The position numbers and the translations under genes were made by a program. Of a DNA stretch of 64,000 nucleotides, positions 4,631 through 52,632 are shown piece after piece (within the stretch, counting starts at the first letter, position 1; each line of letters starts with the position of its first letter). The notes under the pieces were generated by a model that searched no databases, had not been told where the DNA came from, and saw only the letters and a program-made list of their open reading frames with translations. Source of the stretch: Anaerolineae bacterium (GTDB taxonomy: Bacteria; Chloroflexota; Anaerolineae; JAAYZQ01); NCBI GenBank assembly GCA_023544525.1, contig JAMJFU010000001.1:1259-65258 (forward strand). Reading direction: 5' to 3'.

Positions 4631-4659
4631 TTGACAAGCAACTATTCTTCCTGTATTAT
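4631..4659 (+). promoter_or_regulatory. Sigma70-like promoter TTGACA-17-TATTAT upstream of receiver gene
   Basis: Consensus -35 TTGACA (4631-4636) and -10 TATTAT (4654-4659); 9-bp inverted repeat (4597-4606 / 4633-4641) overlaps the -35. Confidence 0.5.
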
Positions 4660-4823: not shown

Positions 4824-5228
4824 ATGTCTGAAGAGAAGCGACATATCCTGGTGGTTGACGACGACGTCCAACTGGTAGACTCGGTCACAACCCTGTTGGA
4901 GAGTGTGGGCTATTCGGTGTCCTATGCCTACCATCCCGAGAAGGCCCTCGACCTGGCCAAGGAAACAAGGCCGGACCTGATCTTGCTGGACATTATGTTC
5001 GCGGGACCGCCAGGGCCCGATGGAGTCGAGGTCTCGAGACAGATCCATCGCGACCCCGAGATCCAGGACATCCCCGTGATCATGCTGTCGGGGGTCAAAA
5101 AGGTCCTGGACATGCCGGTCCACCTGGCACACGACGAGGACTATATGCCGGTCAAGGCCTTTCTGGAGAAGCCCTTCGAGCCAGAGCAGCTGCTGGCCGA
5201 GGTAGAAAAGGTCCTGGGGTCACTTTAA
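4824..5228 (+). CDS. Single-domain CheY-like response regulator receiver (atypical insertion after phospho-acceptor Asp)
   Basis: ILVVDDD...LILLDIMF...PVIMLSG receiver signature; AAGGAG RBS 8 nt upstream of ATG 4824 (longer ORF from 4659 lies upstream of predicted TSS). Confidence 0.75.
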   Translation: MSEEKRHILVVDDDVQLVDSVTTLLESVGYSVSYAYHPEKALDLAKETRPDLILLDIMFAGPPGPDGVEVSRQIHRDPEIQDIPVIMLSGVKKVLDMPVHLAHDEDYMPVKAFLEKPFEPEQLLAEVEKVLGSL

Positions 5229-5233
5229 CTTGT

Positions 5234-5263
5234 TTGACGCCTTTCCTGGTTTCATGTTATAAT
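5234..5263 (+). promoter_or_regulatory. Sigma70-like promoter TTGACG-18-TATAAT upstream of hdr-like operon
   Basis: Sequence motifs at 5234-5239 and 5258-5263, ~110 nt upstream of ATG 5377. Confidence 0.5.
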
Positions 5264-5376
5264 GCGCTGGTTGTTCACCTGGCAATCATACTTGACATGT
5301 CCTGAACCGGCTGCACATCGCATCCGACAACAACGCCGCAGCTTGTTGTAGTCTCTGCTGACCAGGAGGAGGGATC

Positions 5377-6561
5377 ATGGCGGATCGTCTGACCGGTTCC
5401 GAGCAGGACCTCTTTGCCGCAGTGCTGGGCCTGCGGGGTGGTGAGCGGATCAGCGCCTGCTACCAATGCGGGACCTGCTCCGGCTCCTGCCCTACTGCTG
5501 CGATCATGGAGTACAATCCCCGCCGCATCCTCCACATGCTGCGCCTGGGTCTGGGGGAACGCGTGCTCAAGAGCCAGGCAATCTGGCTATGCACTGCCTG
5601 TTACTCCTGTACCGCCCGCTGCCCCCGCGAGATCAAGATCAGCGATGCTATGCTCAGCTTGCGCCGCCTCACAATAGACCGCGGGCTGGATCTGCCCGCG
5701 AACCTGGCGACCATGCGGGATACGGTGACCCACCACCACAACATCTCGGGCGATGACAATGCCAGCCGCCTCATCTGGAGTGACAACCTGGAGGAGGGTG
5801 CTCTTGCCTTCCGGCAGAAGCGCCGTGCAGAGGTTGCTTTCTACGTCGGCTGCGTGGCCTCCTTCTACCCCATGGTCTATGGCATTCCCCAGGCTATGGT
5901 CCAGGTGATGGACCGGGCGGGTGTGGATTTCGCTGCACTTGGCGGTGAGGAATGGTGCTGCGGTTACCCTCTGTACACCGCCGGGATGGAGGGCCTGCTC
6001 GCCGAGCTGATGGCCCATAACGTGGCGCGCGTGCAGGAGATGGGGGCCAAAACCCTGGTGACGACCTGCCCCTCCTGCTATTACACCTGGTCGCACCTCT
6101 ATCCGGAGTTGGAATCCAAGCCCCTTGGCTTCGAGGTGCTGCATGCCTCGCAGTTTCTGGCCCGGCTGGTGGGCGATTCCGCTGTGAAGCTGGGAAGCTT
6201 TGAGCAGACGGTGACCTATCACGATCCGTGCGATCTGGGGCGCAAGAGCGGCATTTTTGACGCCCCGCGGCAGGTCATCGAGGCGATGCCGGGCATTGAG
6301 TTTCGGGAGATGGATGCCCATCGTGAGAACGCTCTTTGCTGCGGCGGGGGAGGGGACGTCCAGATGGTGGACGAACGGGTGACTGAGACGGTCGCTTCGC
6401 GGCGTCTTGGCCAGGCCCAGCAGACGGGCGCGCGGGTGATCCTTTCGGCCTGCCAGCAGTGTAAGCGGACCTTGATGGCTGCCACCCGCCGGGACAAGGT
6501 ACGTATGCGGGTCATGGACCTCTCTGAATTGGTTTTGCGGGCGATGGAGGGCGGAGCATGA
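5377..6561 (+). CDS. Heterodisulfide reductase-like Fe-S protein, HdrC/HdrB fusion (HdrD/GlpC-like; 2x[4Fe-4S] ferredoxin + two CCG domains)
   Basis: CYQCGTCSGSCP and CTACYSCTARCP ferredoxin motifs followed by Cys-rich CCG-type segments (EEWCCGYP, CPSCYY, HDPCDLG, CCGGGG). Confidence 0.75.
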   Translation: MADRLTGSEQDLFAAVLGLRGGERISACYQCGTCSGSCPTAAIMEYNPRRILHMLRLGLGERVLKSQAIWLCTACYSCTARCPREIKISDAMLSLRRLTIDRGLDLPANLATMRDTVTHHHNISGDDNASRLIWSDNLEEGALAFRQKRRAEVAFYVGCVASFYPMVYGIPQAMVQVMDRAGVDFAALGGEEWCCGYPLYTAGMEGLLAELMAHNVARVQEMGAKTLVTTCPSCYYTWSHLYPELESKPLGFEVLHASQFLARLVGDSAVKLGSFEQTVTYHDPCDLGRKSGIFDAPRQVIEAMPGIEFREMDAHRENALCCGGGGDVQMVDERVTETVASRRLGQAQQTGARVILSACQQCKRTLMAATRRDKVRMRVMDLSELVLRAMEGGA

Positions 6562-9500
6562 GAATTGGTGTCTACGTCTGCTACTGTGGATCCAACATCG
6601 CCGGGACGGTGGACGTCGAGGCGGTGGCCAGGTATGCTGAGCAACTGGACGGCGTATTCGTGGCTCGCACCAACAAGTACACCTGTTCCGATCCGGGGCA
6701 GGAGAGCATCCGCCACGACATCTGCGAGTACGGTGTCGACCGGGTGGTTGTAGCTGCCTGCTCGCCGCGCATGCACGAGCGGACCTTCCGCGGGACGCTA
6801 CACTCGGTAGGCCTGAACCCCTACTTTCTGGAGATAGCCAACCTCCGCGAGCACTGTTCCTGGGTGCATACGGACATGGTCACAGCCACGGCCAAGGCAA
6901 AAGACTTGATCCGGGCCGCCGTGGAACGGGTGCGCCGGCACGAACCACTCTATCCTCGCCAGGAACCGGTCACCCGGTCGGCCATGGTGGTCGGCGGGGG
7001 CATCGCTGGCATCCAGGCCGCGCTGGACATCGCCAATTCAGGATACCCGGTCTATCTGGTTGAGCGACAGCCATCTGTCGGCGGGCACATGGCCCAGTTG
7101 GACAAGACCTTCCCCACCCTCGATTGTTCGGCCTGCATCCTCACGCCCAAAATGGTAGACCTTGCGGCGCACCCCAACGTCCACCTGTTGGACTATAGCG
7201 AGGTGGAAGATGTGCAGGGCTATGTCGGCAACTTTCGGGTGAAGGTCCGGCGCAAGCCACGCTACGTCGACGTAGACAAATGCACCGGCTGCGGAACCTG
7301 TGCCGAGGCCTGCCCACGCGAGCTGCCCAGCGAGTTCGACCTGGGGCTCGCCAAACGCAAAGTGATCTACCGGCCCTTTCCCCAGGCAGTGCCCAACGCC
7401 TTTGTGATCGACAAAGTGGGCATTGCACCTTGCCAGAATGCCTGTCCGGCAGGCCAGCATGCCCAGGGCTATATCTCCTACATCCGGGAAGGCCGGTTCG
7501 AAGAGGCCCTGCGCATCATTCGCGAGGACAACCCCTTTGCCAGCGTTTGCGGCCGGACCTGCCACCACCCCTGTGAGGGCAACTGCAACCGGCGCCTGGT
7601 CGACGAGTCCATCGCCATCATGGAGCTGAAGCGCTTTGTGGTGGATTATGTCTATGCCCGGGGTCTGCCACGCCCCATCGAGCCGGTGTCCCAGACGCGT
7701 GAGGAGCGCGTGGCGATCGTTGGCTCTGGGCCCTCCGGCTTGACGGCGGCTCAGCACCTGAACAAGATGGGCTATGGCGTGACCGTGTTCGAGGCGCTCC
7801 CGGTGGCTGGAGGCATGATGCGCACGGGCATCCCGGAGCATCGCTTGCCCAAAGGCATCCTACAGCGCGACATCGACGACATCCTGGCCCTGGGTGTGCA
7901 GTTGCGGCTGAATAGCCCGGTCGGCCAGCCGGCGACACTGCTCAAAGCCCATGGTGGCAATTACGATGCAGTCTATCTGGCAACCGGTGTGAGCCGGACC
8001 ACGAGTCTGGGGATACCGGGCGAAGAACTGACGGGCGTGCTGTCGGGCATCGCGTTTTTGAGGCACGTCAGCCTCGGCCGGCCTGTGCGGATCGGGAAGA
8101 GAGTCGCCGTGGTAGGGGGCGGCATCACCGCCGTGGATGCAGCCACCACGGCCCTGCGCCTGGGGGCTGAAGAGGTGAGCCTGGTCTACCGTCGATCCAG
8201 GGGCGAGATACCGGCCTATTCCTGGGAGCTGGAAGAGGCAGAGGCAGAGGGTGTCCGTCTGTTGACCAACACCGTGGCCACGCGCATCCTGGACAACGAC
8301 GGCTGTGTGAGCGGAATGGAATGTGCCCAGTCGCGGCAGCTGAGCAAGATCGACGACAGTGGCAAGCGGGTGGTCGTGCCCGATCCGGGCACAGAGTTTG
8401 TCATGGAGGTGGACACCGTCATCCGGGCCATCGGCCAGTTCTCCGACCAGGTATTCCTAGAGGAGCCATTCGATACGATGGTGGGTGACCAGGAAACGCT
8501 GGCCACGGGGATCAGCGGGCTCTTTGCCGGCCGCGGGGCTGTCGCGGGTGCTGGGTTCGTCATCAATGCCGTGGCCTCGGGACACGAGGCTGCCCGCTCC
8601 ATCCATCGCTACCTGCAGGGTGAGCCCCTGCAACAGGCGGAGCCCAACAAGCGGCCGGTGGAAAAGTGGACCCGCGAGGAAGCAGAGACCAAGGTGCGGC
8701 TGGGCGCCATCGTACCCACACCACGCCAAGAGCCAGCGCGCCTATCCCTGGAGGAACGGGTAGAGACCTTCCGGGAAGTAGTGCTGCCCCTGACGAAGGA
8801 GCAGGCCATGGCCGAAGCAGCCCGCTGCCTGGACTGTGGCATCTGCTCCGAGTGCTACCGCTGCGTGTGGGCCTGCGAGCGAGAGGCCATCGACCACAAC
8901 ATGCAGGAGCGGGTGGAAGAGCTTGAGGTCGGGGCCATCGTGCTGGCGACGGGTTTCGAGCTGTATGACGCCCGAAATTTGCCGCAATATGGTTATGGAC
9001 GCCATGAGAACGTGTATACTGCGCTGGAGGTGGAGCGGCTGGTCAACGCCAGCGGCCCAACCGGGGGCCACGTCGTCTTGAGAGACGGGCGCGAGCCCGG
9101 CGCCGTGGCCATCCTTCACTGCATCGGCAGCCGGGACCGGCAGCACAACGCCTACTGCTCCCGCGTCTGCTGCATGTACTCGATGAAACTGGCCCACCTG
9201 ATCCGGGAAAAGACCCACGCCCAGGTCTATGAATTCTATTTCGACATTACTGCCTACGGCAAAGGCTATGCCGAATTCTATGAGCGCATCCAGGAGGAAG
9301 GCGTCATCTTTGTGCGGGGCAAGGGCGCCGAGGTCGGAAGAGGGCCCGGTGGCGGCTTGGTCGTCCGCGCCGAGGAGACCCTGCTGGGTGAGATTGTAGA
9401 GATCCCCGTAGACATGGTCGTGCTGTCCACGGCCATGGTGCCCGCCGCCGATGCCGAGCAGCTGGCCCAGCTCTTCCACGTCAGCCGCAGCGAGGATGGC

Positions 9501-9929
9501 TTTTTCCTGGAAGCGCATCCCAAGCTGCGGCCCGTGGAAACCGCCATGGACGGCATTTACCTGGCCGGTACGTGCCAGGCGCCCAAGGACATCCCCGATA
9601 CAGTGTCCCAGGCGAGCGGTGCGGCGGTCCAGGCCGTGGCGCTGCTAAACCGGGGCCAGGTCGAGATCGAACCGATGACCGCTGAAGTACTCCCCCTGCG
9701 CTGCGTTGCCTGTGGCCTATGCGCCGAAGTATGCCCGGCCGGAGCAGTGCGCATGGTCGATACGCGTGGCGGCAGGCTGGCCGAGATCAACCCGGCCCTG
9801 TGCAAGGGCTGTGGCCTGTGCGTCGCCGCCTGCCGGGGCGGGGCGATCACCCTGCACGGCTTTACGGACCAGCAGCTATTGGACCAGTTAACGGCCCTGC
9901 TGCGCCCCGCGGCCCTTGTGCCTGCGTGA
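6558..9929 (+). CDS. hdrA: HdrA-like FAD flavoprotein fused with GltD/NfnB-like NAD(P)H-binding module (HdrL-type), 1123 aa
   Basis: N-terminal Cys-cluster domain (CYCGSNIAG), FAD GxGxxG (VVGGGIAGIQAAL), inserted ferredoxin (CTGCGTCAEACP), internal GltD-like segment (CQNACPAG...RTCHHPCEGNC...IVGSGPSGLTAA...VAVVGGGITAVD), HdrA C-terminal region and CVACGLCAEVCP / CKGCGLCVAAC ferredoxin; ATGA overlap with upstream gene. Confidence 0.8.
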   Translation: MRIGVYVCYCGSNIAGTVDVEAVARYAEQLDGVFVARTNKYTCSDPGQESIRHDICEYGVDRVVVAACSPRMHERTFRGTLHSVGLNPYFLEIANLREHCSWVHTDMVTATAKAKDLIRAAVERVRRHEPLYPRQEPVTRSAMVVGGGIAGIQAALDIANSGYPVYLVERQPSVGGHMAQLDKTFPTLDCSACILTPKMVDLAAHPNVHLLDYSEVEDVQGYVGNFRVKVRRKPRYVDVDKCTGCGTCAEACPRELPSEFDLGLAKRKVIYRPFPQAVPNAFVIDKVGIAPCQNACPAGQHAQGYISYIREGRFEEALRIIREDNPFASVCGRTCHHPCEGNCNRRLVDESIAIMELKRFVVDYVYARGLPRPIEPVSQTREERVAIVGSGPSGLTAAQHLNKMGYGVTVFEALPVAGGMMRTGIPEHRLPKGILQRDIDDILALGVQLRLNSPVGQPATLLKAHGGNYDAVYLATGVSRTTSLGIPGEELTGVLSGIAFLRHVSLGRPVRIGKRVAVVGGGITAVDAATTALRLGAEEVSLVYRRSRGEIPAYSWELEEAEAEGVRLLTNTVATRILDNDGCVSGMECAQSRQLSKIDDSGKRVVVPDPGTEFVMEVDTVIRAIGQFSDQVFLEEPFDTMVGDQETLATGISGLFAGRGAVAGAGFVINAVASGHEAARSIHRYLQGEPLQQAEPNKRPVEKWTREEAETKVRLGAIVPTPRQEPARLSLEERVETFREVVLPLTKEQAMAEAARCLDCGICSECYRCVWACEREAIDHNMQERVEELEVGAIVLATGFELYDARNLPQYGYGRHENVYTALEVERLVNASGPTGGHVVLRDGREPGAVAILHCIGSRDRQHNAYCSRVCCMYSMKLAHLIREKTHAQVYEFYFDITAYGKGYAEFYERIQEEGVIFVRGKGAEVGRGPGGGLVVRAEETLLGEIVEIPVDMVVLSTAMVPAADAEQLAQLFHVSRSEDGFFLEAHPKLRPVETAMDGIYLAGTCQAPKDIPDTVSQASGAAVQAVALLNRGQVEIEPMTAEVLPLRCVACGLCAEVCPAGAVRMVDTRGGRLAEINPALCKGCGLCVAACRGGAITLHGFTDQQLLDQLTALLRPAALVPA

Positions 9930-9964
9930 CCGGGCGCCGGGCCCTATCAAGGAGGAAAGACCCT

Positions 9965-10438
9965 ATGGCCCTCATGACCGGAGACGAGATCCTCGAGATC
10001 GCAACCCGCCTCGAAGAGAACGGCGAGGCATTCTACGCCTCGGCCGCAGATTGTGCGACGACGGCTGGGGTCAAGGCGCTGTTCCGGGACCTGGCGCTGC
10101 AGGAACGCCTCCACCGCCGCGCGTTCGAAGCGATGGCGGGCGGCGAGGTGACGTTGGGTTTTACAGCCGAGCAGCACGAGGAGTTCCTGGCCTACACCGA
10201 CGCGCTCTTGCGCAAGGAGTTCTTTGATGGCAGCGGTGGTGCCCTCGACCGTGCTGCACATGCCGGCGACGAGCGCTCGGTTCTGAAGGCCGCACTGGAA
10301 TTTGAGAAGGAGACTCTCCTCTTCTACCACGAACTCGAGGGAATCGTTGGCAACGCGGATCGGGAAACCGTGGCAGGGATCATCCAGGAGGAGAAGCAGC
10401 ATATCCAGCGCCTGTCAAAGATGCTGGCTGCAGTTTGA
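9965..10438 (+). CDS. Rubrerythrin/ferritin-like diiron protein
   Basis: Four-helix ExxH-type repeats (EENGEAFY, QERLHRRAFE, EFEKETLLFYHELE, EEKQHIQRL); AAGGAGGAAAG RBS upstream of ATG 9965. Confidence 0.7.
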   Translation: MALMTGDEILEIATRLEENGEAFYASAADCATTAGVKALFRDLALQERLHRRAFEAMAGGEVTLGFTAEQHEEFLAYTDALLRKEFFDGSGGALDRAAHAGDERSVLKAALEFEKETLLFYHELEGIVGNADRETVAGIIQEEKQHIQRLSKMLAAV

Positions 10439-10500
10439 GATGCGCTGTGCTCCACCGGTTGGCCATGCGATCGAATGAGGGAAAGAGAAGGACAGGTTGA

Positions 10501-10932
10501 ATGACTGAGAGCTTTGAGCCCAGGATCGTCGGGTTTCTCTGCAACTGGTGTAGTTACGCGGGGGCCGACATGGCCGGCACCAGCCGCATCGCCTATCCGC
10601 CCAACATCCGCATTGTCCGCGTACCGTGCTCGGGACGGGTGGACCCCCTCTTTGTGCTGAAGGCATTCCAGGAGGGGGCCGACGGGGTGCTGGTGGCGGG
10701 CTGCCATCCCGGTGACTGCCACTACGGTGATGGCAACTATCACGCCCGCCGTCGCTACGCCCTGATGCACAGCTTGCTCGATTACGTGGGCGTCGATGCT
10801 GGGCGCCTGCGCATCGACTGGGTGTCGGCCGCCGAGGGCAACCGCTTTGCCCAAGTGGTCGCCGAGTTAACCGAGCAGGTGAGAGAGCTTGGTCCGTGGG
10901 CCGGCCGGCAAGAGCGGGAGGTGGCCGCATGA
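10501..10932 (+). CDS. mvhD: MvhD/FlxD-like hydrogenase-type Fe-S subunit (methyl-viologen-reducing hydrogenase delta family)
   Basis: Near-consensus FlpD/MvhD motifs FLCNWCSYAGADMAG, VRVPCSGRVDP, DGVLVAGCHPGDCHY. Confidence 0.85.
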   Translation: MTESFEPRIVGFLCNWCSYAGADMAGTSRIAYPPNIRIVRVPCSGRVDPLFVLKAFQEGADGVLVAGCHPGDCHYGDGNYHARRRYALMHSLLDYVGVDAGRLRIDWVSAAEGNRFAQVVAELTEQVRELGPWAGRQEREVAA

Positions 10933-11789
10933 GCAGGGAGATCCAGGAGGGCATCCGGGTCCAGGCGCGAGAATTGCTGGGCCTGGGCGAGATATCCTGT
11001 GTGATCGGCTACGAACAAGGTCCGAAGGGCCGCGTCCGGCCGGCATTCGTCTACGATCAGGCTGGCACTGACCGCCTGGTCTGGGACCAGACGTGCCACC
11101 ATAACCTGGTGGTCTACCTGCACGACCGCCGCAAAGGGGGCAAGACCTCCGCGGCGTCCCGGGTGGCCGTGGTTGCCAGGCCCTGTGACGTGCGGGCCCT
11201 GAACGTGTTGATCCACGAGGGACAGGTATCCAGGGAAGAGGTCTTTGTGATCGGCGTGGCCTGCCCGGGCATGGCGGAGGGTGCCACGCTGCAGGCCCAT
11301 TGCCAGCGCTGCCGGGAGCGTGTTCCGGTGTTCTATGACGCCTTGGTCGGCGAGCCGGCCAGGGTCAAGCTCCCTGCCGACGATTGGTCCGACGTGGCGG
11401 AATTGGAGGGGATGACCCCGGCTGAGCGACTGGCCTTCTGGAGCCGCGAATTCGACCGCTGCATCCGCTGCTACGCCTGCCGCCAGGCCTGTCCCGGCTG
11501 TTACTGCTTCGAATGCCTGGCTGAGCAAGTCGATCCAGCCTGGGTCAGCATTGCCCACGGCCTATCGCAGAAGGCCTTTTTCCACGTCATGCGCGCCTAT
11601 CACCTGGCGGGCCGCTGCGTGGAGTGCCAGGCCTGCGACCAGGCCTGCCCGATGCACATCCCACTCAGCCTCCTGAACCGAAAAATCGCCAAAGAGGTGG
11701 AAGCCCTGTTCAACTACAAAGCTGGGGGTGATCCCGAGATCCCACCGCCGCTGGCGACTTTTCTCAAGGACGAGGAGTTGCCGCTTTGA
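10929..11789 (+). CDS. Fe-S cluster protein of HydB/AsrA/FlxB-C family
   Basis: CIRCYACRQACPGCYCFEC and CVECQACDQACP cysteine motifs; ATGA overlap with mvhD stop, GGGAGGTGG RBS. Confidence 0.65.
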   Translation: MSREIQEGIRVQARELLGLGEISCVIGYEQGPKGRVRPAFVYDQAGTDRLVWDQTCHHNLVVYLHDRRKGGKTSAASRVAVVARPCDVRALNVLIHEGQVSREEVFVIGVACPGMAEGATLQAHCQRCRERVPVFYDALVGEPARVKLPADDWSDVAELEGMTPAERLAFWSREFDRCIRCYACRQACPGCYCFECLAEQVDPAWVSIAHGLSQKAFFHVMRAYHLAGRCVECQACDQACPMHIPLSLLNRKIAKEVEALFNYKAGGDPEIPPPLATFLKDEELPL

Positions 11790-11799
11790 AGGAGCACGA

Positions 11800-12810
11800 A
11801 TGAAAGCAACGAGTAGAAGCGACCTGCTGGCCTGGCTCGATGCGCTTTCCGAGCAGTATACGGTGATTGCGCCCCGGATGGTCGACGGAGAGCTGCTCTA
11901 CCGGCCTGTGCACGCCAGCGACGAGGTCGTGCTCGACTTTGAGCGGACGAGGCTATCGGCAAAATCCTATCTCCTGCCCGAGACCGAGGTCATCCTCGAG
12001 ATCGAGAGACAGGAGGGCCAGGTGACGCTGGGCGAACCGAGGCTGGACCGGGATCAGGTAATCCTGCTGCGGCCCTGTGATGCCCGGGCTCTGCGCGCCC
12101 TCGACGCGCTGCTGCTGGATCGCCCACCAGCCGACGCCTACTATGCCGATCGACGCGAGAAGACGAGCTTGATCGGCCTCGCCTGCCCCCAACTCTGGGA
12201 CGATTGTTTCTGTACGAGCCTGGGCAGCGCCCCTGACGATGCTTCGGCCGTGGACGTGATGGTCTATAAAGATGGCGACGCCCACCTGGTAGAGGTGATC
12301 ACAGGCAAGGGCCGGGCCCTGATGGACGGGCTGGAAGCAGAAGAGGTGGAACGACCTACCCCGCACTCTGACAGGTCCGGCGAGCAGATAGCCGTGCTGG
12401 CGCCGGAGGATTGGCCCGGCCTGTTCGACGAGGCCTACTGGCACCAGCTCGCCGAGCGCTGCCTCAGTTGCCACGCTTGCACCTACGTCTGTCCTACCTG
12501 TCGCTGCTTCGATGTGCGCGATGATACGACGGCGGCGGGCGCCAGCTACACGCACATCCAGCGCCTGCGGGCCTGGGATAGCTGCATGGCCAGCGCCTAC
12601 CGGCGCATTGCCGGCGGCCACAACCCACGTCCGGACAAGGCGCAGCGCCTGCGCAACCGCTACTATTGCAAATTCTGCTATTCGCCTTCCGATTTCGGAG
12701 CCGTGGCCTGTGTGGGCTGTGGGCGGTGCATTGAGGTTTGCCCGGTGGGCGTGGATATCGCCGAGATGCTGGCCAACGTGGCTGCCCTGGCCAAAGGGAG
12801 GAGCGCGTGA
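11800..12810 (+). CDS. Fe-S cluster protein, anaerobic sulfite reductase subunit A-like (HydB/AsrA/FlxB-C family)
   Basis: CLSCHACTYVCPTCRCF and CVGCGRCIEVCP motifs, paralogous to preceding gene; GAAGGAG RBS before ATG 11800. Confidence 0.65.
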   Translation: MKATSRSDLLAWLDALSEQYTVIAPRMVDGELLYRPVHASDEVVLDFERTRLSAKSYLLPETEVILEIERQEGQVTLGEPRLDRDQVILLRPCDARALRALDALLLDRPPADAYYADRREKTSLIGLACPQLWDDCFCTSLGSAPDDASAVDVMVYKDGDAHLVEVITGKGRALMDGLEAEEVERPTPHSDRSGEQIAVLAPEDWPGLFDEAYWHQLAERCLSCHACTYVCPTCRCFDVRDDTTAAGASYTHIQRLRAWDSCMASAYRRIAGGHNPRPDKAQRLRNRYYCKFCYSPSDFGAVACVGCGRCIEVCPVGVDIAEMLANVAALAKGRSA

Positions 12811-13634
12811 GCGAGCGAGACAACCCCCTGCGCCCACTGCTGGGCACGCTGGTGGACACCAAGGACCTGGCCGACGACATCAAGCTTTTCCAGATCGAGT
12901 TGAATGGGGACCGCTTTGAGTACCAACCCGGCCAGTTTGCCTTTGTCTCGGCCTTTGGCGTGGGTGAGGCACCCTTTGGTTTGGCCTCGGTATCGTCGCG
13001 GACCCCTGCGCTGGAGTTTGCCATCAACCGCATCGGGACAGTCACCTCGGCCCTGCACGGCCTGGAACGCGGGGCGGTGGTCGGCGTGCGTGGGCCCCTG
13101 GGGAACGCTTTCCCGCTGGATGAGATGCAGGGCAAGAACGTCGTCGTGCTGGGTGGGGGTATCGGTGGCGCGCCCCTGAGGCCGGTCATCCACACCATCC
13201 TGGACAACCGTCCCGATTATGGCCACCTGGATATCCTGTGGGCGGCGCGCAGCCCCTCGCTCCTGGTGTTTACGGACGAATACGACGACTGGCGCTCGGC
13301 GCCCGATACGGAACTGCACCTGACGGTGGACAAGGGAGACAGCGACTGGACAGGGAACGTGGGCCTCATCACCGGACTATTGGAGAAGGCAGCGCCCTCG
13401 CCCGAGGATGCCGTGGCCATCATCTGCGGGCCGCCGATCATGATCAAGTTCACGGTCCTGACCCTGCAAAAGCTCGGCTTCACCGCTGAGCAGATGATCA
13501 TGACGCTGGAAGCCAAGATGAAATGCGGCATCGGCAAATGCGGGCGCTGCAACCTGGGCGAAAAGTTCGTATGCCTGGATGGCCCTGTCTTTTCCTATGC
13601 CCAGGTATCCCATTTCCTGGAGAGTTTCGTCTAG
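12807..13634 (+). CDS. flxA: FAD/NAD(P)H-binding oxidoreductase with C-terminal [2Fe-2S] (HydG/AsrB/FlxA/PyrK-like), GTG start
   Basis: Ferredoxin-reductase-like fold motifs (GQFAFVS, VVVLGGGIGGAPL) and C-terminal CGIGKCGRCN; GTGA overlap with upstream stop and AAGGGAGGA RBS. Confidence 0.7.
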   Translation: MSERDNPLRPLLGTLVDTKDLADDIKLFQIELNGDRFEYQPGQFAFVSAFGVGEAPFGLASVSSRTPALEFAINRIGTVTSALHGLERGAVVGVRGPLGNAFPLDEMQGKNVVVLGGGIGGAPLRPVIHTILDNRPDYGHLDILWAARSPSLLVFTDEYDDWRSAPDTELHLTVDKGDSDWTGNVGLITGLLEKAAPSPEDAVAIICGPPIMIKFTVLTLQKLGFTAEQMIMTLEAKMKCGIGKCGRCNLGEKFVCLDGPVFSYAQVSHFLESFV

Positions 13635-13671
13635 GCTGCCATCACTGTACCTGCTTTGCCAAGGAGGGGAA

Positions 13672-14166
13672 ATGGTCGAGCTTGACGCCCTTCGTCATTG
13701 TGAGCTGTTCGCCGACCTTAGCGACAAAGAGCTTGGGCAGTTGGCGGCCATTGTCTGCGAGGAGAGACACGAGCCCGGGAGCCTCATCTGCGCCGAGCGT
13801 GAGCTTGCCGACCGGCTCTTTGTCCTGAGCAGAGGCAGAGTGCAGCTGCAGATCCGCTTGCGGGGGCACTTGGAGCCTGCAGGCGAGGCAACCATCGAGG
13901 AAGTCGAGCCAGGACGCATATTTGGTTGGTCGTCGCTGGTGAAACAGCGTCGATTTACCGCATCGGCCCGCGCTCTGGATCCCGTAGCCGTCTTGTCTAT
14001 CAGGGCAGATGACCTCCGGGCCCTGTTCGACCAGAGCCCGCATATCGGGTTCGTGGTCATGAAACAACTGGCCGAGGTGGTCGCCTCGCGGCTGCAGCAC
14101 ACCCGCCAGGTCTGCGAGGAGGCAGCGGCAGAGGCAGCGCTGGATGACGGCAGACGCGAAGGCTAG
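13672..14166 (+). CDS. Cyclic-nucleotide-binding domain protein (no recognisable HTH)
   Basis: cNMP-binding fold signature (LFADLSDKEL...GEATIEE...RTASARAL); AAGGAGGGG RBS immediately upstream. Confidence 0.6.
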   Translation: MVELDALRHCELFADLSDKELGQLAAIVCEERHEPGSLICAERELADRLFVLSRGRVQLQIRLRGHLEPAGEATIEEVEPGRIFGWSSLVKQRRFTASARALDPVAVLSIRADDLRALFDQSPHIGFVVMKQLAEVVASRLQHTRQVCEEAAAEAALDDGRREG

Positions 14167-14217: not shown

Positions 14218-15624
14218 CTATGCTTCCTCTGTCGTCCCGACGTCAGCCCTCGGCAGGCGGACGACGAACTTGCTGCCCAGGCCCGCCTCCGACTCCAGCC
14301 GGATCTCCCCGCCCCAGTTCTCGATCAGCCGCTTCACAATGGCCAGGCCGACACCGGTGCCGACGGGCGACGCCGTTCGGGCATTCTCTGCACGGTAGAA
14401 CTCTTCAAAGATACGGTCCTGATCTTCAGGCGGGATGCCGATCCCGGTATCGCGGACGATTCCAACCACATGCTGTGGTGTCTGTTTCAGCGATACGGCG
14501 ACGATGCCCCCGGGCTCTGTGTATTTGAGGGCATTACTCAGGAGGTTGGTCCACACCAGCTTGAGCCGGTCGGGATGGGCTTGCACCGGTGCCAGGTCTG
14601 GAGCAACGTCCACACTCAGAAAGATGTCCTTGCTGTCTGCCTCGGCCTTCATGAGCTCAACTACGCTTTGAAGCACATCTGCGCTCTGAACCGCAGCCAG
14701 TTGCTCATCCCGGCTGGCCTCCTCGCGCGCCCGGGCCAGCCTCAGCAGGTCCGAGACCAGGTCCGACAGCTCCTCCGTCCGCTCCATGAGCCGTTTCAGG
14801 ACGCCACGCACCTTCTCGGGTGGCAGGTAGCCCGACAACACCAGTTCCATGCTGGTATGGATGGTGTTGATGGGCGCTCGCAGCTCGTGGGTGACGAGGG
14901 TCAGAAACCGGGTGCGTTCCGCGTCGATCCGCCGCAGGCGTTCGTTCAGGACCTCCAATTGCCGGCTCTTGGCCAGAGATGCCTGGTGGCTCTGGAGCAG
15001 CTCACGGTCACGCTGGCGGAGCCGGACGGTGATGGACGAGGTCATATAGGCCACCAGCCAGAGGGTCAGAGCCATGGTCCCTGTTACGGCCAACAGGTAG
15101 CCTGTCATGCGGTACGGCTCTGCGTCCCCGAGCATCGGCAAGTGATAGTGCTGCAGGACGCCGGTAGCCTCGAGTCCGGTCATGGCAGCGAACAGCGCCG
15201 CGGCCACGGTGCCCATCACAAAACTGATGGTGCGCGAGAGCAGGATACTGGCGATGATGGTGTGGAACACAAAAAAGACGGCCATGGGGTTCTCCACGCC
15301 GCCAGAGAAGTGCAGCAGGATGGCCAGCGCGACCAGGTCGAGCAGGATCTGGATACATGCAAAACGCTGTGCCTGTCGCAGCCGGGGCATCCCTGCCGGG
15401 CCCAACATCAGGTTACGGTTGTATAGCCGGAACTGGCTGTTGTAAAGAGCGATGGCTGCCGTGACAGCGATGAGTGGGAGCAGTGGAAGCGCGCCCGGAA
15501 ACAAAAGCCAGCTCAGGGCAATGGCCGAGCCGGTCCCCAAGACGGCGAGCCAGCGCAAGCGGATCAGCCAGCCGATCCGCTCGATGAGCTCGGCCTCGTG
15601 GGGGATTTGGTTTTCCATCAGCAA
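14218..15624 (-). CDS. Sensor histidine kinase with N-terminal multi-TM sensor domain
   Basis: Six predicted TM helices, HisKA H-box (THELRAPIN), HATPase_c motifs (NLLSNALKYT, DTGIGI, GTGVGLAIV). Confidence 0.8.
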   Translation of the reverse strand: MLMENQIPHEAELIERIGWLIRLRWLAVLGTGSAIALSWLLFPGALPLLPLIAVTAAIALYNSQFRLYNRNLMLGPAGMPRLRQAQRFACIQILLDLVALAILLHFSGGVENPMAVFFVFHTIIASILLSRTISFVMGTVAAALFAAMTGLEATGVLQHYHLPMLGDAEPYRMTGYLLAVTGTMALTLWLVAYMTSSITVRLRQRDRELLQSHQASLAKSRQLEVLNERLRRIDAERTRFLTLVTHELRAPINTIHTSMELVLSGYLPPEKVRGVLKRLMERTEELSDLVSDLLRLARAREEASRDEQLAAVQSADVLQSVVELMKAEADSKDIFLSVDVAPDLAPVQAHPDRLKLVWTNLLSNALKYTEPGGIVAVSLKQTPQHVVGIVRDTGIGIPPEDQDRIFEEFYRAENARTASPVGTGVGLAIVKRLIENWGGEIRLESEAGLGSKFVVRLPRADVGTTEEA

Positions 15625-15636
15625 GGCCTGGATAGC

Positions 15637-16044
15637 CTATCCTTGGGTCGCGCCAGCAGGCTCCCCTGCAAAGCGCTCAGCGATCTCGAGGACCTCGCTG
15701 AGTGGAACAGGCTTGTCCAGGAACATGTGGGCCCGCAAAGGCCGGTCGGTGGGAAAGTCGCCAGCATGCTCCGAATCTACAATCGAAGTGAGCATGACGA
15801 CCGGCACATCCCGGAGCTGCGGGTCAGACGCAATCTCCTCAGAGACCCACACCCCTTCCGTGGGCATGCGCATGATGATGTCGAGGAAGACCAGATCGGG
15901 CTTGGCCTCGCGCATCATCTCCAGGCCCAGGCTCCCCTGATGGGCACAACGCACCGTAAAGCCGTTGGCCTGCAGCGCGGCCTGCAGCGCAGCGCACAGA
16001 TCGGGATCATCGTCGATGACCAACACACTTCCTTTTGTCCCCAT
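15637..16044 (-). CDS. Single-domain CheY-like receiver, paralog of 4824..5228
   Basis: VLVIDDDPDL...LVFLDIIM...VVMLTS; GGAGGG RBS upstream of ATG at 16044; same atypical insertion after acceptor Asp as 4824 gene. Confidence 0.7.
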   Translation of the reverse strand: MGTKGSVLVIDDDPDLCAALQAALQANGFTVRCAHQGSLGLEMMREAKPDLVFLDIIMRMPTEGVWVSEEIASDPQLRDVPVVMLTSIVDSEHAGDFPTDRPLRAHMFLDKPVPLSEVLEIAERFAGEPAGATQG

Positions 16045-16586: not shown

Positions 16587-17054
16587 ATGGAGCAAGAGAC
16601 ACTGGATTTGGCGCCTTTGTACGAGATGCTGAAGGAGTACAAGACCCAGCGTGGTGCAGTGATCCCAGCGTTGCAGAAGGCCCAGGGCATTTATGGCTGG
16701 CTACCAAAGGAGGTACTGGAGGTTGTCTCGCAAGAGATGCGCGTACCGCTCAGCCAGATCTATGGGGTCGTGACCTTCTATTCACAGTTCTATCTTACCC
16801 GCCGCGGGCGGCACATCTGCCGGCAGTGCGATGGAACCGCCTGTCATGTCAAAGGCGCTGCCGCCATCGTCAGCGCGGCCGAGAAGCACCTCGGCGTCAA
16901 GGCTGGCGAGACGACACCAGACTACGAGGTCACCTTTGAGGTCGTCTACTGCCTCGGTTCCTGCGGCCTGGCACCGGTAGCCATGATCGACGACAAGGTC
17001 ATCGGGCACCTCGTGCCGGAACGGATGGTGGACATTCTGGACAAGTTGGAGTAG
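16587..17054 (+). CDS. NuoE/HoxE/HndA-like thioredoxin-fold [2Fe-2S] subunit
   Basis: CRQCDGTACHVKGA ... VVYCLGSCGLAP motifs. Confidence 0.85.
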   Translation: MEQETLDLAPLYEMLKEYKTQRGAVIPALQKAQGIYGWLPKEVLEVVSQEMRVPLSQIYGVVTFYSQFYLTRRGRHICRQCDGTACHVKGAAAIVSAAEKHLGVKAGETTPDYEVTFEVVYCLGSCGLAPVAMIDDKVIGHLVPERMVDILDKLE

Positions 17055-17216
17055 CTATGAGGAATCGGTGCCCAAGGAGTGGCAGGTACGCGAGCTATCT
17101 TTGCACATCCTCGACACTGGGGGATATCCCCCTGTCCTCTCCACCAGTGAGAGGCTGGCTATACGACTATATCGTCGAAGGCGAGGCAGAGCTCGCCGCT
17201 CGACCATAGGGAGGAA

Positions 17217-17612
17217 ATGATGCCAAAGCTCAAGTCGATTGAGGATCTGAAAGCGGTCCGCGAACAGGCCCAAAGGGATCTGAAGGTGCGCACCGAGACC
17301 GGCACCCGGATCATCGTCGGGATGGGGACATGTGGCATCGCCGCGGGCGCCCGCGAGACAATGCATGCCATCCTCGAGGAACTCGACCGGCAGGGGATCG
17401 AGGCCAATGTCACAACCGTCGGTTGTATCGGCATGTGCTCCAAGGAACCCCTGGTGGACATCGAGCAGGCAGGGCGACCGCGGATCACCTATTGCAACGT
17501 CGATCCCAGCATGGTGCCGCGGCTCATCGAAGAGCACCTGCGCCAGGGCAATGTGGTTTATGAGTGGACGATGGGCCGAGTGCCCAGCGAGGGCATCGGA
17601 CAGAGTTCATGA
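17217..17612 (+). CDS. HndB-like small thioredoxin-fold [2Fe-2S] ferredoxin
   Basis: GMGTCGIAAGA and GCIGMCSKEP motifs. Confidence 0.65.
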   Translation: MMPKLKSIEDLKAVREQAQRDLKVRTETGTRIIVGMGTCGIAAGARETMHAILEELDRQGIEANVTTVGCIGMCSKEPLVDIEQAGRPRITYCNVDPSMVPRLIEEHLRQGNVVYEWTMGRVPSEGIGQSS

Positions 17613-17659
17613 CGAATATGGACTGCGAAATTGGCGGATAGCCATCGGAGGAATCTGTT

Positions 17660-20600
17660 ATGAGCGAAGCATTGCGCCGGGCCAACGTCCTGGTCTGCGG
17701 TGGGACGGGTTGTGAGGCCTCCGGCTCTCACGATACCTTCCAAAGGCTCACCGAGGAGGTGGAGCGGCGGGGCCTTACCAACGAGGTACAGCTGATCCAC
17801 ACTGGCTGCCGGGGGTTCTGCGCCATGGGACCCATTGTGATCATCTATCCGGAAGGGATCTTTTACTGCCAGGTCCAAGGGGAGGACATCCCACTCCTTG
17901 TCGAGGAGACGCTGGTCAAAGGCCATATTGTGGAGCGATTGACCTACAAGGAACCTGCTGCGCATCAGGCGGTGCCCTTCTACAGCCAGATCCCCTTCTA
18001 CGAAAAGCAGAAGCGCATCATCCTGCGCAACTGCGGCATGATCGACCCGGAAAATCTGGAGGAGTATATTGCCCGTGACGGCTACCAGGCCCTGGGCAAG
18101 GTTCTGTCGACGATGACCCCTCGGGACGTCTACGGAGAGGTCAAGGCCTCCAAGCTCCGGGGCCGGGGCGGCGCAGGCTTTCTTACCGGTCTCAAGTGGG
18201 AGTTTACCGCCCGGGCCCAGGCAGAGCCCAAGTACGTCGTCTGCAACGCCGACGAGGGCGATCCTGGTGCCTTCATGGACCGCTCGGTCATCGAAGGGGA
18301 TCCCCATAGCTTGCTTGAGGGCATGATCATCTGCGGCTATGCCATCGGCGCCAGGGAAGGATACGTCTACTGCCGGGCGGAATACCCATTGGCCATCAAA
18401 CGCCTCGAGATCGCCATGGCCCAGGCCGAAGAGTACGGGCTGCTGGGAGACAACATCCTGGGCACCGACTTCTCCTTCCATCTCCATGTGAAGGAGGGAG
18501 CCGGCGCCTTTGTCTGCGGCGAGGAAACGGCGTTGCTGGCCTCCATCGAGGGCCGGCGCGGCGAGCCTCGCCCGCGGCCTCCCTTTCCGGCCGTTGTCGG
18601 CCTGTGGGGCAAGCCCACCAACCTGAACAACGTGAAGAGCTATGCCAGCGTGCCGCAGATCATACTTAACGGGGCAAAGTGGTTCGCCAGCATCGGCTCG
18701 CCCGAATCGCCAGGCACGGCCATTTTTGCGCTCACCGGCAAGGTGAACAACACGGGCCTGGTCGAGGTGCCGATGGGCATCATGTTGGGCGAGATCATCT
18801 TTGACATCGGTGGCGGCATTCCCAACGGCAAACCCTTCAAGGCGGTACAGACCGGCGGGCCTCTGGGCGGCTGTATCCCGGTCCAGCACCTCAACGTGCC
18901 GGTTGACTTTGACTCGCTGAAAGAGGTCGGGGCCGTTATGGGCTCCGGCGGCATGATCGTTGTCGACGAAGACACCTGCATGGTTGAATTCGCCAAGTTC
19001 TTCCTGACCTTTGCCACCGCCGAGAGCTGTGGCAAATGCGTTCCCTGTCGCATGGGCGGCAAGCGCATGCTTGAGGTGTTGACTCGCATCACGGAGGGCC
19101 GGGGCCGGCTGCAAGATCTGGTCACCCTCCGCGAGCTTGCCGCCGGCATGGAGGAAGCTTCGCTGTGTGCCTTGGGCCAGCTGACGCCCGGCCCGGTCAA
19201 GTCCGCACTACAATACTTTGAAGACGAGTTCATCGCCCACATCGTCGATAAGCGCTGCCCCGCGGGCGCGTGCACAAGCCTGGTCCGTGCCCGGTGTATC
19301 AACGCCTGCCCGGCCGACGTGGACGTGCCCAGCTACGTGGCACTGGTGGCCCAGGGCCGCTACGCAGAGGCACTGGAGATCCATCGCCGCACCAATCCCT
19401 TCCCCCTGGTCTGTGGCCGTGTGTGCCCGGCCTTTTGCGAAGACCGCTGCCGGCGGGCCGATATCGACGAAGCGATCGCCATACGTGACGCCAAACGCTT
19501 CATGGCCGATCACGAGTTGGAACGGCCGTGGACGCCGCCGAGATATGGCGAAGCCAAGGACCAAAAGGTTGCCGTCGTCGGCTCCGGGCCGGCGGGGCTC
19601 ACGGCCGCCCTCCGCCTGGCGCAGCAGGGCTACCCGGTCACAGTGTTCGAACAGCTTCCCGCGCCAGGCGGCATGATGGCATTCGGCATTCCGGACTATC
19701 GCCTGCCGCGCGACATTCTGAATGCCGACATCGAAGCCATCACCCGGGCCGGAGTCGAGATCCGCTGCAACCAGGCCCTGGGCCGTGACTTTAGCCTCGA
19801 CTCCCTGTCTGAGGATGGCTACAGTGCCGTGGTGCTGGCCATAGGCGCTCACAAGAGCAGCAAGCTGCGCATCGAGGGCGAGGAAAAGGAAGGCGTCCTG
19901 CCCGGTGTCGACTTTTTGCGGGAGGTGGCCCTGGACAACCCGCCCGATCTCACAGGCAAACGCGTAGGGGTGGTCGGCGGAGGCAATGTAGCCATCGACG
20001 CCGTGCGCACGGCCTGGCGGCTGGGTGCCAGCCAGGTTCACGTCATCTATCGCCGCCTGCGGGAGGACATGCCAGCCTACGAAGAAGAGATCAAGGCTGC
20101 CGAAGAGGAAGGTGCCATCTTCCACTTCCTGACCAATCCCACCCGGGTTCTGGGCGATGGGCATGTGACGGGGGTAGAGTGCCTGGTCCACGAGCCGGGC
20201 GACTTTGACCGGAGCGGTCGCCGTCGTCCGGTGCCGGTCCCAGGCTCAGAGTTCACCCTGGACCTCGACGTGCTCATCCCAGCCATCGGCCAATCGCCTG
20301 ACGTCGAGTGGTTGGCTGGTGATCCGGCAATTGCCCTCCAGCGGAACAACACCTTCGAAGTCAGCGGGGCGCTGTGCACGTCGCGGGAGGGTGTGTTTGC
20401 GGCAGGTGATGCCGTCCTTGGACCGGCTACCGTGGTAGAGGCAGTGGCGCAGGGCAACGAAGTGGCCCGCGCGGTGGATCACTATCTGCGAACCGGGACG
20501 ACGGAAAAGACCGTCATGATGCCTGGCTATGAGGTGGTGGAGCAGCCCTTTGACCTGGACGAATATGCCGATGCGCGCCGGCCTCACAGACCCGAGTTGC

Positions 20601-24035: not shown

Positions 24036-24140
24036 CCTGATCGTATCCGGTTGACCAGGAGGAGCTTGCGTCGCTCCGCTTACGGCCCAAACGATCATCT
24101 TCACCTGCAAGAGCGACCAGAGTACCAAAGGGGAGGGACC

Positions 24141-52587: not shown

Positions 52588-52632
52588 GCTATCCTGGCTT
52601 TCCGACCTGGCGTCGGTGATGGCGAATGACAA

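Follow-up and report, generated by a model that had tools for sequence, protein, structure and literature searches.

On balance we favour the view that eight consecutive genes of an Anaerolineae bacterium (Chloroflexota; JAAYZQ01) constitute a single operon, which encodes a soluble and oxygen-sensitive Flx-Hdr-type complex of iron-sulfur flavoproteins whose thiol partner is most likely a lipoyl group. The genes lie at 5377-14166 of a 64,000-nt stretch of DNA (assembly GCA_023544525.1, contig JAMJFU010000001.1, positions 1,259-65,258, forward strand), hereafter called the window, whose numbering is used throughout; the cluster studied spans 4824-14166 and includes one further gene upstream. Homologous loci whose neighbourhoods were compared with the window carry L-numbers. 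Domains were called with Pfam and NCBIfam, and structural relatives were identified by sequence matches to PDB entries.

The largest subunit, HdrL (1123 aa; 6558-9929, + strand), is a true HdrA that carries an inserted module of the GltD/NfnB type, as the initial annotation of this DNA had proposed. It matches the HdrA2 model at 860 bits and contains Fer4_20 and Pyr_redox_2 domains of the GltD/NfnB type. The full-length HdrA core aligns with HdrA of M. thermolithotrophicus (5odc_A; E 2e-224, 751 bits overall) in two parts, residues 2-286 with 5odc_A 5-290 (392 bits) and residues 763-1118 with 5odc_A 293-653 (365 bits). The 476-residue insert sits between HdrA residues 290 and 293, between the Cys motifs of the inserted ferredoxin domain, both of which are kept. 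According to this alignment, residues 1-286 (6558-7415, +) comprise the HdrA N-terminal domain, the first half of the flavin adenine dinucleotide (FAD) domain and the first inserted-ferredoxin Cys motif (C242/245/248/252). Residues 763-1123 (8844-9929, +) comprise the second such motif (C763/766/769/773), what is left of the HdrA FAD domain and, C-terminally, a ferredoxin domain with two [4Fe-4S] clusters. We aligned HdrL with 15 homologues of 56-87% identity. All HdrA cluster cysteines, including C855/867/871/872, are invariant among them, and so are K877, which aligns with HdrA K409, and R429, which aligns with NfnB R187 (for the roles of K409, the FAD-N5 lysine, and of R187, see PMC6405883). 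The HdrA alignment and the conserved HdrA residues rule out that the protein is a generic pyridine-nucleotide disulfide oxidoreductase. Structure prediction had been suggested for locating the insertion site. The AlphaFold2 model proved to be of low quality, and the insertion point is placed by the 5odc_A sequence alignment.

The inserted segment, residues 287-762 (7416-8843, +), is by its sequence a complete NfnB/StnC-like unit, with two predicted [4Fe-4S] clusters, FAD and a Rossmann fold for reduced nicotinamide adenine dinucleotide (phosphate), NAD(P)H (Fer4_20 4e-21, Pyr_redox_2 7e-35). Its matches are 9bov_A ('molybdopterin oxidoreductase', NfnB-like domain, 387 bits), 9n5u_A (NfnA of the Bfu-type NfnABC, 343 bits), 4ylf_B (NfnB, 311 bits) and 8oh5_C (StnC, 303 bits). 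The translation contains a YRRS motif in the Rossmann fold of the insert, a motif typical of NADPH binders. In Bfu-type enzymes, the FAD of NfnA/StnC serves simply as the point where NADPH electrons enter and are passed to Fe-S clusters (PMC11829005). The NfnB-like FAD of HdrL could be a second bifurcation site, but this is less likely and is not our default reading because the FAD of the closest structural relatives of the insert, the Bfu-type NfnA/StnC, is a simple NADPH entry.

A variation of HdrL was seen in the related locus L077, where an in-frame TGA (10577-10579) occupies the position of C193 of the window protein (TLDCAA*ILTPK in L077, TLDCSACILTPK in the window). This TGA probably encodes selenocysteine; the window HdrL has a cysteine there. 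The hdrL or hdrA open reading frames (ORFs) of L013, L017, L041 and L051 are also split near this point; the codon-level check covered L077.

The gene preceding hdrL codes for an HdrCB fusion of the HdrD type (394 aa; 5377-6561, +). Its N-terminal HdrC-like domain is a Fer4 dicluster (Fer4_8) for two [4Fe-4S] clusters, and its C-terminal part consists of two CCG domains (Pfam CCG 8e-31), each with a complete C...CCG...CxxC motif. This CCG part is the presumed thiol/disulfide site. The PDB matches of HdrCB are 5odc_C (HdrC, 2e-23), 5odc_B (HdrB, 4e-8) and the iron-sulfur-binding reductase 9ojn_A (7e-44). Downstream of hdrL, and separated from it only by the gene of a 157-aa erythrin-like protein, mvhD (10501-10932, +) codes for a 143-aa MvhD/FlxD-like [2Fe-2S] protein (Pfam FlpD 2e-56, 190 bits, whole model; NCBIfam VhuD 6e-42), which we take as the connector to HdrA.

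Three Flx-like genes follow. The FlxC-like Fe-S protein (286 aa; 10929-11789, +), whose start codon overlaps the mvhD stop codon, contains six conserved N-terminal Cys residues, besides two CxxCxxCxxxCP motifs and one CxCxxC motif. Its C-terminal half matches the FdhB Fe-S domain of solved formate dehydrogenase-Hdr (Fdh-Hdr) complexes (7bkb_E 1e-25, 9t1s_M 9e-25, 8rvu_E 9e-20), which fits a connector role beside MvhD. Homologues of this protein are labelled 'formate dehydrogenase subunit beta' or 'ferredoxin' by JGI. The FlxB-like protein (336 aa; 11800-12810, +) resembles the beta subunit of sulfhydrogenase I (9nez_B, 1e-40), contains a Fer4_22 domain (2e-30) and matches the NCBIfam models ShyB (6e-48) and AsrA (5e-46), both below the family cut-offs. 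The FlxA-like protein (275 aa, GTG start; 12807-13634, +), with NAD_binding_1, DHODB_Fe-S_bind and FAD_binding_6 domains, is predicted to bind FAD and NAD(P)H and to hold a [2Fe-2S] cluster, and it is closer to the gamma subunit of sulfhydrogenase I (9nez_C, 1e-48) than to NfnA (4ylf_A, 7e-18). By its domain content the trio resembles FlxA, FlxB and FlxC, and it is 32-48% identical to, and syntenic with, the proteins of canonical hdrA-mvhD-flx loci. The domains of HdrCB, MvhD and the FlxA-like protein, which had been described as HydG/AsrB-like, are those originally listed. Two HydB/AsrA-like proteins had also been proposed. That description suits the 336-aa protein, and the 286-aa protein is better viewed as similar to the C-terminal part of FdhB/FrhB.

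All nine ORFs of 4824-14166 lie on the + strand, and their GC content at third codon positions, 0.70-0.80, indicates coding frames; both the genes and their domain content correspond to the initial annotation. The previously noted 4-nt overlaps are present, as ATGA at 6558 and 10929 and as GTGA at 12807. The remaining gaps measure 35, 62, 10 and 37 nt, with a Shine-Dalgarno-like sequence after each. The 148-nt gap between the first gene, which codes for a CheY-like receiver, and hdrCB contains the best promoter-like site of the region. This candidate sigma-70-like promoter (5234-5263, +) consists of TTGACG, an 18-nt spacer and TATAAT with an extended TG, with 11/12 consensus matches. Five promoter-like sites were found in the region against 2.1 expected in the consensus scan (promoters and terminators were sought by consensus matching alone), and one such site lies upstream of the CheY gene at 4631-4659. 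Because of the 148-nt gap and its promoter-like site, we treat the segment from hdrCB to the last gene, for a cyclic nucleotide (cNMP)-binding protein, as what looks like an eight-gene operon with its own promoter-like site, and the CheY gene as a neighbour. Rfam at gathering thresholds gave no match in the 5' leader of hdrCB; its sole matches in the window were the tRNA-Leu(tag) and tRNA-Ala(tgc) genes (52501-52707, +).

The cluster family is abundant in Anaerolineae metagenome bins. HdrL homologues of ~1123 aa with at least 76% identity form more than 70 protein clusters, and those with an organism name all belong to Anaerolineae or Chloroflexota. The core hdrCB-hdrL-mvhD-flxC-flxB-flxA is found in all nine close relatives with enough sequence to read it (L001, L003, L006, L086, L089, L092, L093, L116 and L117). 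More distant loci share it, namely L002, L036 and L115 (53-57% identity), L042, L077 and L033, a locus of a Zixibacteria metagenome-assembled genome. The linkage on which the initial annotation had based its reading is thus conserved. In contrast, the gene order that it regarded as inverted is not unusual. The same hdr-before-flx order, with an ordinary 650-aa HdrA, is common in unrelated bacteria, including Clostridia, Thermodesulfobacteriota, Geobacterales, Coriobacteriaceae and Ignavibacteriales (L050, L060, L062, L064, L067, L068, L070, L080, L100 and L104). Loci with HdrL but no Flx genes are frequent in Dehalococcoidia and Desulfobacterota (L007-L015, L019, L021 and L024). HdrL and Flx together form a variant that recurs, and no description of it was found in the literature searched; a literature search for Flx-Hdr in Chloroflexi gave nothing.

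Two variations among the relatives were observed. The clusters of L003 (16947-17807) and L116 (16202-17062) have a gene for a 286-aa flavodoxin-ferredoxin fusion between flxC and flxB, which could be a low-potential electron carrier of the complex. Anaerolineae also have a longer HdrL class of ~1500 aa with 52% identity (L005 and L031), found together with a short MvhD, MetV (DUF5981), MetF and a 474-aa CCG protein. A gene for a histidine kinase with a cNMP domain precedes this set, and the context is of the methylene-tetrahydrofolate-reductase type.

We infer that the subunits of the window form one complex, and the direction of electron flow, the stoichiometry, the nucleotide specificity and the substrate that follow are likewise proposals. 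The FlxA-like subunit would take hydride from NAD(P)H or give it back, and electrons would pass via the FlxB-like and FlxC-like Fe-S subunits and the [2Fe-2S] cluster of MvhD to the HdrA-core FAD of HdrL, a site with all the sequence hallmarks of a bifurcating flavin. One branch would then lead through the HdrC-like clusters of HdrCB to the two CCG sites, where non-cubane clusters would serve disulfide reduction or dithiol oxidation. In ordinary HdrA proteins, the inserted ferredoxin domain leads to external ferredoxin. In HdrL this domain appears hard-wired to the StnC/NfnB-type module, and the other branch would run through it, into the module or out of it. The module would represent a second pyridine-nucleotide site, probably for NADPH, and ferredoxin may be served as well. 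With its FlxA-like and NfnB-type modules, the complex would therefore couple NAD(P)H at two sites with a thiol/disulfide couple and possibly with ferredoxin.

To our knowledge, the partner thiol of bacterial Hdr-type systems is known only for sulfate reducers (DsrC), along with that of methanogens (coenzymes M and B, CoM/CoB). No DsrC was noticed among the annotated genes of the window, in which no search was aimed at DsrC, and a host with CoM/CoB is not expected. By analogy with related clusters, the partner of the complex is most likely a protein-bound lipoyl dithiol/disulfide or persulfide. We propose a lipoyl partner because clusters with orthologous subunits carry genes for a GcvH-like protein, a lipoate ligase and TusA/DsrE proteins. 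The gene immediately after the flxA-like one codes for a GcvH-like protein in L002, L036 and L033, and in L092, whose HdrL is 86% identical to that of the window, such a gene lies divergently upstream of hdrCB. The most complete arrangement read, that of L036, is ArsR, DsrE, DsrE, DsrH, TusA, DsrE2, hdrCB, hdrL, mvhD, flxC, flxB, flxA, the GcvH-like gene and a split LplA, with its catalytic and C-terminal parts encoded separately downstream of the GcvH-like gene. L115 has the same sulfur-transferase set upstream of its cluster. In one other genome (L120-L123), a 728-aa CCG protein of the HdrD-like type is encoded directly upstream of a GcvH-like/LplA pair, and its C-terminal 400 residues are 46% identical to the window HdrCB over its whole length (E 2e-128). 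Furthermore, the HdrCB orthologues of L002, L036, L115 and L118 are 50-51% identical to that of the window, compared with 31-34% for the HdrCB proteins of canonical HdrA-Flx loci.

The GcvH-like proteins of L002, L036, L033 and L092 have kept the lipoyl-lysine, in the motif '(E/Q)S(G/S)KWVG'. The 'ESGKWVG' subfamily is abundant in Anaerolineae, with 1754 proteins at E<=1e-20; the 120 matches listed all share 71% identity or more with the query. Wherever the context was read (loci L120-L135), the GcvH-like gene is followed by one for an LplA-type ligase. A GcvH-like lipoyl protein, LplA, TusA, DsrE-type transferases and an ArsR-type regulator are the accessory set that always accompanies the sHdr-LbpA systems (PMC11094781, PMC6067878). 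In its boldest form, to which we give a low probability, the proposal is that the complex represents a third kind of Hdr-lipoate system, of anaerobic Chloroflexota and some Zixibacteria. Its CCG subunit would act on the lipoyl group of a dedicated GcvH-like protein or on a lipoyl-bound persulfide fed by TusA/DsrE. The system would be wired to both NADH and NADPH in a bifurcating or confurcating manner, with the erythrin-like protein as a genuine subunit or an electron outlet. If the lipoyl partner is real, a concrete substrate can be named, and the link between lipoate and Hdr extends from aerobic sulfur oxidisers to anaerobic Chloroflexota. The cluster would then also provide a natural case of an HdrA flavin hard-wired to an NADPH module, informative about how flavin-based bifurcation modules recombine. 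If not, the cluster is one more uncharacterised variant of Flx-Hdr.

Several observations weigh against the reading of one complex with a lipoyl partner. No GcvH-like, LplA, TusA or DsrE gene was found within the 64-kb window, and a GcvH-like gene lies near only one of about ten loci of its own clade (L092). The GcvH-like/LplA pair occurs alone, without a CCG protein, in a second genome. The LbpA proteins are defined as GcvH-like, with the lipoyl-lysine and two conserved Cys residues (PMC6067878). These two diagnostic cysteines are missing from the GcvH-like proteins of L002, L036, L033 and L092, which were therefore rejected as LbpA and could be the ordinary GcvH of the organism. In L002 and L118, which belong to the clade with 55-57% identity, a gene for formate-tetrahydrofolate ligase (formyl-THF ligase) is found just upstream of hdrCB, with an acetate kinase gene between the two in L002. 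A one-carbon or glycine-cleavage reading of the GcvH-like protein must be kept in mind, because the formyl-THF ligase gene adjoins the cluster in these loci. The potential of the lipoamide couple, ~-290 mV, is also too low for it to serve as the high-potential acceptor in NADH-driven ferredoxin reduction; a confurcating direction, a sulfane-sulfur substrate or the coupling of NADH, NADPH and a disulfide would fit better. The Hdr and Flx halves could be separable enzymes, because each occurs without the other, HdrL-MvhD-HdrCB without Flx in Dehalococcoidia and Flx with plain HdrA elsewhere. In relatives, unrelated genes often interrupt the cluster, coding for hydrolases, an epimerase, MscL, URO-D or the flavodoxin-ferredoxin fusion, which weakens the case for strict co-translation. 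Lastly, the AlphaFold2 models of HdrL (from the 15-sequence alignment; mean predicted local distance difference test score, pLDDT, 60.7; predicted template modelling score 0.42) and of the FlxC-like protein (pLDDT 45.5) are too poor for use.

The gene between hdrL and mvhD (9965-10438, +) codes for a ferritin-like diiron protein of the erythrin type (157 aa; Pfam Rubrerythrin 3e-9, 37.7 bits for a cut-off of 22.8). It has two E...ExxH motifs, E47xxH50 and E143xxH146, with additional upstream Glu residues, and its best solved relative is the ferritin-like diiron protein TM1526 (1vjx, 4e-13). The protein was first described as rubrerythrin-like. The diiron motifs and the Pfam match agree with this, but no rubredoxin-like Fe(Cys)4 domain is present in the 157 residues, which include one Cys and no CxxC pair. 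An orthologue follows hdrL in 10 of 16 close relatives, the exceptions being L006, L086, L088, L089, L093 and L117. In L115 and L118, orthologues with 39-41% identity over the full length are encoded between hdrCB and hdrL, and the gene is missing from the clusters of L002, L036, L033, L042 and L077. It is thus a recurrent but facultative accessory. A random insertion, like those of the hydrolase, MscL and epimerase genes of relatives, was rejected as the only explanation of its presence, since a second clade has orthologues elsewhere in the cluster. The most likely role of the protein is defence against peroxide or oxygen, or that of an overflow acceptor. Two more genes of the rubrerythrin family, also erythrin-like, lie directly after the gene of a selenocysteine-containing formate dehydrogenase (FDH) subunit, FdhA (23541-24035 and 24051-24599, +). 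Their products share only ~30% identity with each other and with the protein of the hdr cluster. In total, a 15-kb part of the window has three erythrin-like genes, each of them next to a redox module that is sensitive to oxygen.

Other explanations of the cluster must be considered. Its two distinct pyridine-nucleotide modules, one of them spliced into the inserted ferredoxin domain of HdrA and bearing the NADPH-type YRRS motif, together with the recurrence of HdrL plus Flx in several lineages, are consistent with a ferredoxin-independent, disulfide-driven transhydrogenase. NADH would be oxidised at the FlxA-like subunit and the HdrA flavin would split the electron pair, downhill to the disulfide and uphill through the NfnB-like part to NADPH, or the reverse. 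We find this unlikely, the nucleotide specificity of both sites being putative. Moreover, the inserted-ferredoxin Cys motifs and the C-terminal ferredoxin domain are kept, so access for ferredoxin may persist, and the flavodoxin-ferredoxin fusion in the clusters of L003 and L116 hints at a low-potential carrier. Still less probable, in our opinion, is that the locus encodes two neighbouring but separate enzymes, an NADPH-dependent disulfide reductase made of HdrL, MvhD and HdrCB, and an NAD(P)H:acceptor oxidoreductase of the FlxCBA type. The many Dehalococcoidia and Desulfobacterota loci with HdrCB-HdrL-MvhD and no Flx (listed above) favour such a division, as do L003, L089, L092 and L116, where unrelated genes separate flxC from flxB or hdrL from mvhD. 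Nevertheless, the mvhD stop codon overlaps the flxC start codon, every HdrL-Flx and HdrA-Flx locus has mvhD, flxC, flxB and flxA in this order, and in the loci compared the FlxC/FlxB/FlxA trio was seen only beside mvhD and hdrA or hdrL.

The flanks of the cluster had suggested a formate/H2-linked supercomplex, with the selenocysteine-containing FDH and a [NiFe]-hydrogenase docking on the Hdr core and feeding it electrons as in the Fdh-Hdr and Mvh-Hdr complexes of methanogens. The hydrogenase maturation genes hypF, hypD and hypE are directly upstream, FdhA with NuoE/NuoF-type subunits is encoded 2.4 kb downstream, the FlxC-like protein resembles the C-terminal domain of FdhB in Fdh-Hdr complexes, and [NiFe]-hydrogenase genes occur within 10 kb in L003, L092 and L116. 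However, the FDH module (16587-23490, +) lies beyond an opposite-strand pair of kinase and regulator genes and has its own NuoE/NuoF-type diaphorase, made of NuoE, an HndB-like protein and a NuoF-NfnB fusion. FDH adjoins the cluster in none of the nine close relatives and hypFDE in none. The hydrogenases of the relatives differ in type, group-3-type with HycI in L003 and L116, that of L003 with its own HydB/HydG subunits, and a different [NiFe]-hydrogenase in L092. No hydrogenase structural gene was found in the window, and the cluster has entry points for electrons of its own in its two NAD(P)H modules. Counting the window, 4 of 10 clade members have some gene for a [NiFe]-hydrogenase or its maturation within 10 kb. 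This amounts to a loose neighbourhood with hydrogen metabolism, but a physical supercomplex is not supported, because the hyp and FDH flanks are not conserved, and we consider it very improbable. Of the electron-bifurcating Flx/Hdr module originally described, the HdrA core, the NfnB insert and the linkage stand, whereas the unusual gene order and the supercomplex do not. We attach hardly any weight to the idea that the complex is mainly an oxidative-stress module sending electrons from NAD(P)H to the diiron protein for the reduction of H2O2 or O2. The intact diiron motifs, the presence of orthologues in two clades at two positions inside the cluster, the two additional erythrin-like genes after FDH and the NCBIfam entry PRK12775, described, by name only, as a PyrK-GltD-ferritin-domain fusion, point that way. 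Yet 6 of 16 close relatives and the five more distant clusters named above lack the diiron gene, its product has no rubredoxin-type domain, and a peroxidase would need neither a CCG subunit nor MvhD nor an HdrA of the bifurcation type.

Several known systems are close to the cluster. One of them is Hdr/Flox, the FlxABCD-HdrABC complex of anaerobes such as Desulfovibrio vulgaris (Ramos et al. 2015, as outlined in PMC5947623), whose defining activity is a ferredoxin-coupled reduction of DsrC or a heterodisulfide that depends on NADH. Judged by domain content, the window cluster has the same kinds of component, namely an NAD(P)H subunit with FAD and [2Fe-2S], a pair of Fe-S subunits, MvhD, a flavoprotein of the HdrA type and a CCG disulfide reductase, and as in many bacterial Flx-Hdr loci, mvhD-flxC-flxB-flxA follow hdrA. 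The replacement of HdrBC by HdrD, as in the window HdrCB, is known in S. fumaroxidans Hdr/Flox and has been published (PMC5947623). Unlike FlxABCD-HdrABC, the window HdrA has the 476-aa insert with its NADPH, FAD and two [4Fe-4S] sites, and the erythrin-like and cNMP-binding genes are added. HdrL itself was defined in 2009 as a 'heterodisulfide reductase/glutamate synthase fusion' followed by mvhD (PMC2702500). Like the HdrL proteins of Desulfobacterium autotrophicum and S. fumaroxidans, that of the window unites HdrA and a GltD/NfnB-like module in one polypeptide, with mvhD nearby. The HdrA-NfnB proteins of ANME-1 (HdrA9-11), reported in 2022, have an NfnB-like insertion of ~500 aa, by which the inserted ferredoxin domain is split (PMC9012536), and the insertion point in the window protein is inside the same domain. 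In contrast with these proteins, HdrL is combined here with a Flx trio and an HdrCB fusion. The fused Hdr core (HdrCB and HdrA-GltD) noted at the outset is borne out by the domain searches. Neither the HdrL architecture nor the HdrD-type fusion is new, and the cluster is a conserved variant of Flx-Hdr/HdrL. No biochemically characterised HdrL was found in the literature searched.

The cluster shares the HdrA core, HdrC, MvhD and an FdhB-type domain, here in the FlxC-like protein, with the MvhAGD-HdrABC and Fdh-Hdr complexes of methanogens (5odc, 7bkb and 8rvu). It differs from them in that it has no hydrogenase or FDH subunit, that its donor modules are NAD(P)H-dependent and that its CCG part is distant from HdrB (4e-8). 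L036, L115 and L002 resemble the sHdr-LbpA systems in pairing Hdr-like genes with genes of the accessory set (GcvH-like, LplA-type, TusA, DsrE-type and ArsR-type). The sHdr core itself is shdrC1B1AHC2B2 (type I) or shdrC1B1AHB3-etfAB-emo (type II) (PMC11094781). It is not matched in the window cluster, where neither a second HdrBC set nor hdrH nor etfAB/emo was found, and in contrast with sHdr the window HdrA is full-length, of the bifurcating type and accompanied by MvhD and Flx. Relative to Bfu-type NfnABC/StnABC (9n5u, 8oh5 and 9bov), the insert shares a C-terminal 'RCLxCG' segment that is N-terminal in NfnB, but it resides inside HdrA rather than in a NuoE/F-type complex. Compared with NfnAB (4ylf), the NfnB-like part is internal to HdrA and the PyrK-family subunit is nearer to sulfhydrogenase gamma than to NfnA.

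The first gene of the region codes for a stand-alone CheY-like receiver (134 aa; 4824-5228, +; Pfam Response_reg 6e-19). The domain is as originally described, but the gene does not belong to the conserved cluster. No orthologue was found upstream of hdrCB in L001, L006, L088, L092, L093, L116 or L117, and with the promoter-like site in the 148-nt gap the gene is probably its own transcription unit. At the other end, the last gene of the putative operon codes for the stand-alone cNMP-binding protein identified earlier (164 aa; 13672-14166, +; Pfam cNMP_binding 7e-15), which has no DNA-binding domain. This gene follows the flxA-like gene in seven of eight close relatives (L001, L003, L006, L089, L092, L093 and L117, not L116) and appears to be a clade-specific member of the operon. 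Genes with cNMP domains also adjoin hdrL in L004, L005 and L031.

The convergent genes at 14218-16044 (- strand) code for a histidine kinase (14218-15624; HisKA/HATPase_c) and a response regulator (~15637-16044; Response_reg). L003 (59% and 81% identity) and L006 (55% and 61%) have orthologues of both genes at this site. The pair is a candidate regulator of the cluster, which it separates from the FDH module. The latter begins with a NuoE-like gene (16587-17054, +), followed by genes for a small protein with no Pfam match, taken as HndB-like (17217-17612, +), and for a 1043-aa NuoF::NfnB/GltD fusion (17660-20791, +); similar NuoF-GltD fusions are found in L004 and L107. The fdhA gene (+) is split by an in-frame TGA (21853-21855) read as selenocysteine in the context CARL-U-HS. 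In L003, the kinase/regulator pair is followed by genes for a HAD hydrolase and then a peptidase M17. In the window, the pair is separated from the peptidase M17 gene (28028-29572, -) by the FDH module, the two erythrin-like genes and genes for a C11 peptidase and MscL. Because L003 has the pair followed by the hydrolase and peptidase genes without the FDH block, this block appears either to have been inserted in the window or to have been lost from L003.

Farther downstream, the window contains genes for a fusion of DUF123 with HEAT repeats (30642-31661, -) and for an 848-aa protein with a weak HerA/DUF87 match (36503-39049, -). A class A penicillin-binding protein gene (41352-44087) is followed by a 2026-aa ORF with coding-like GC content at third codon positions (44127-50207, +).

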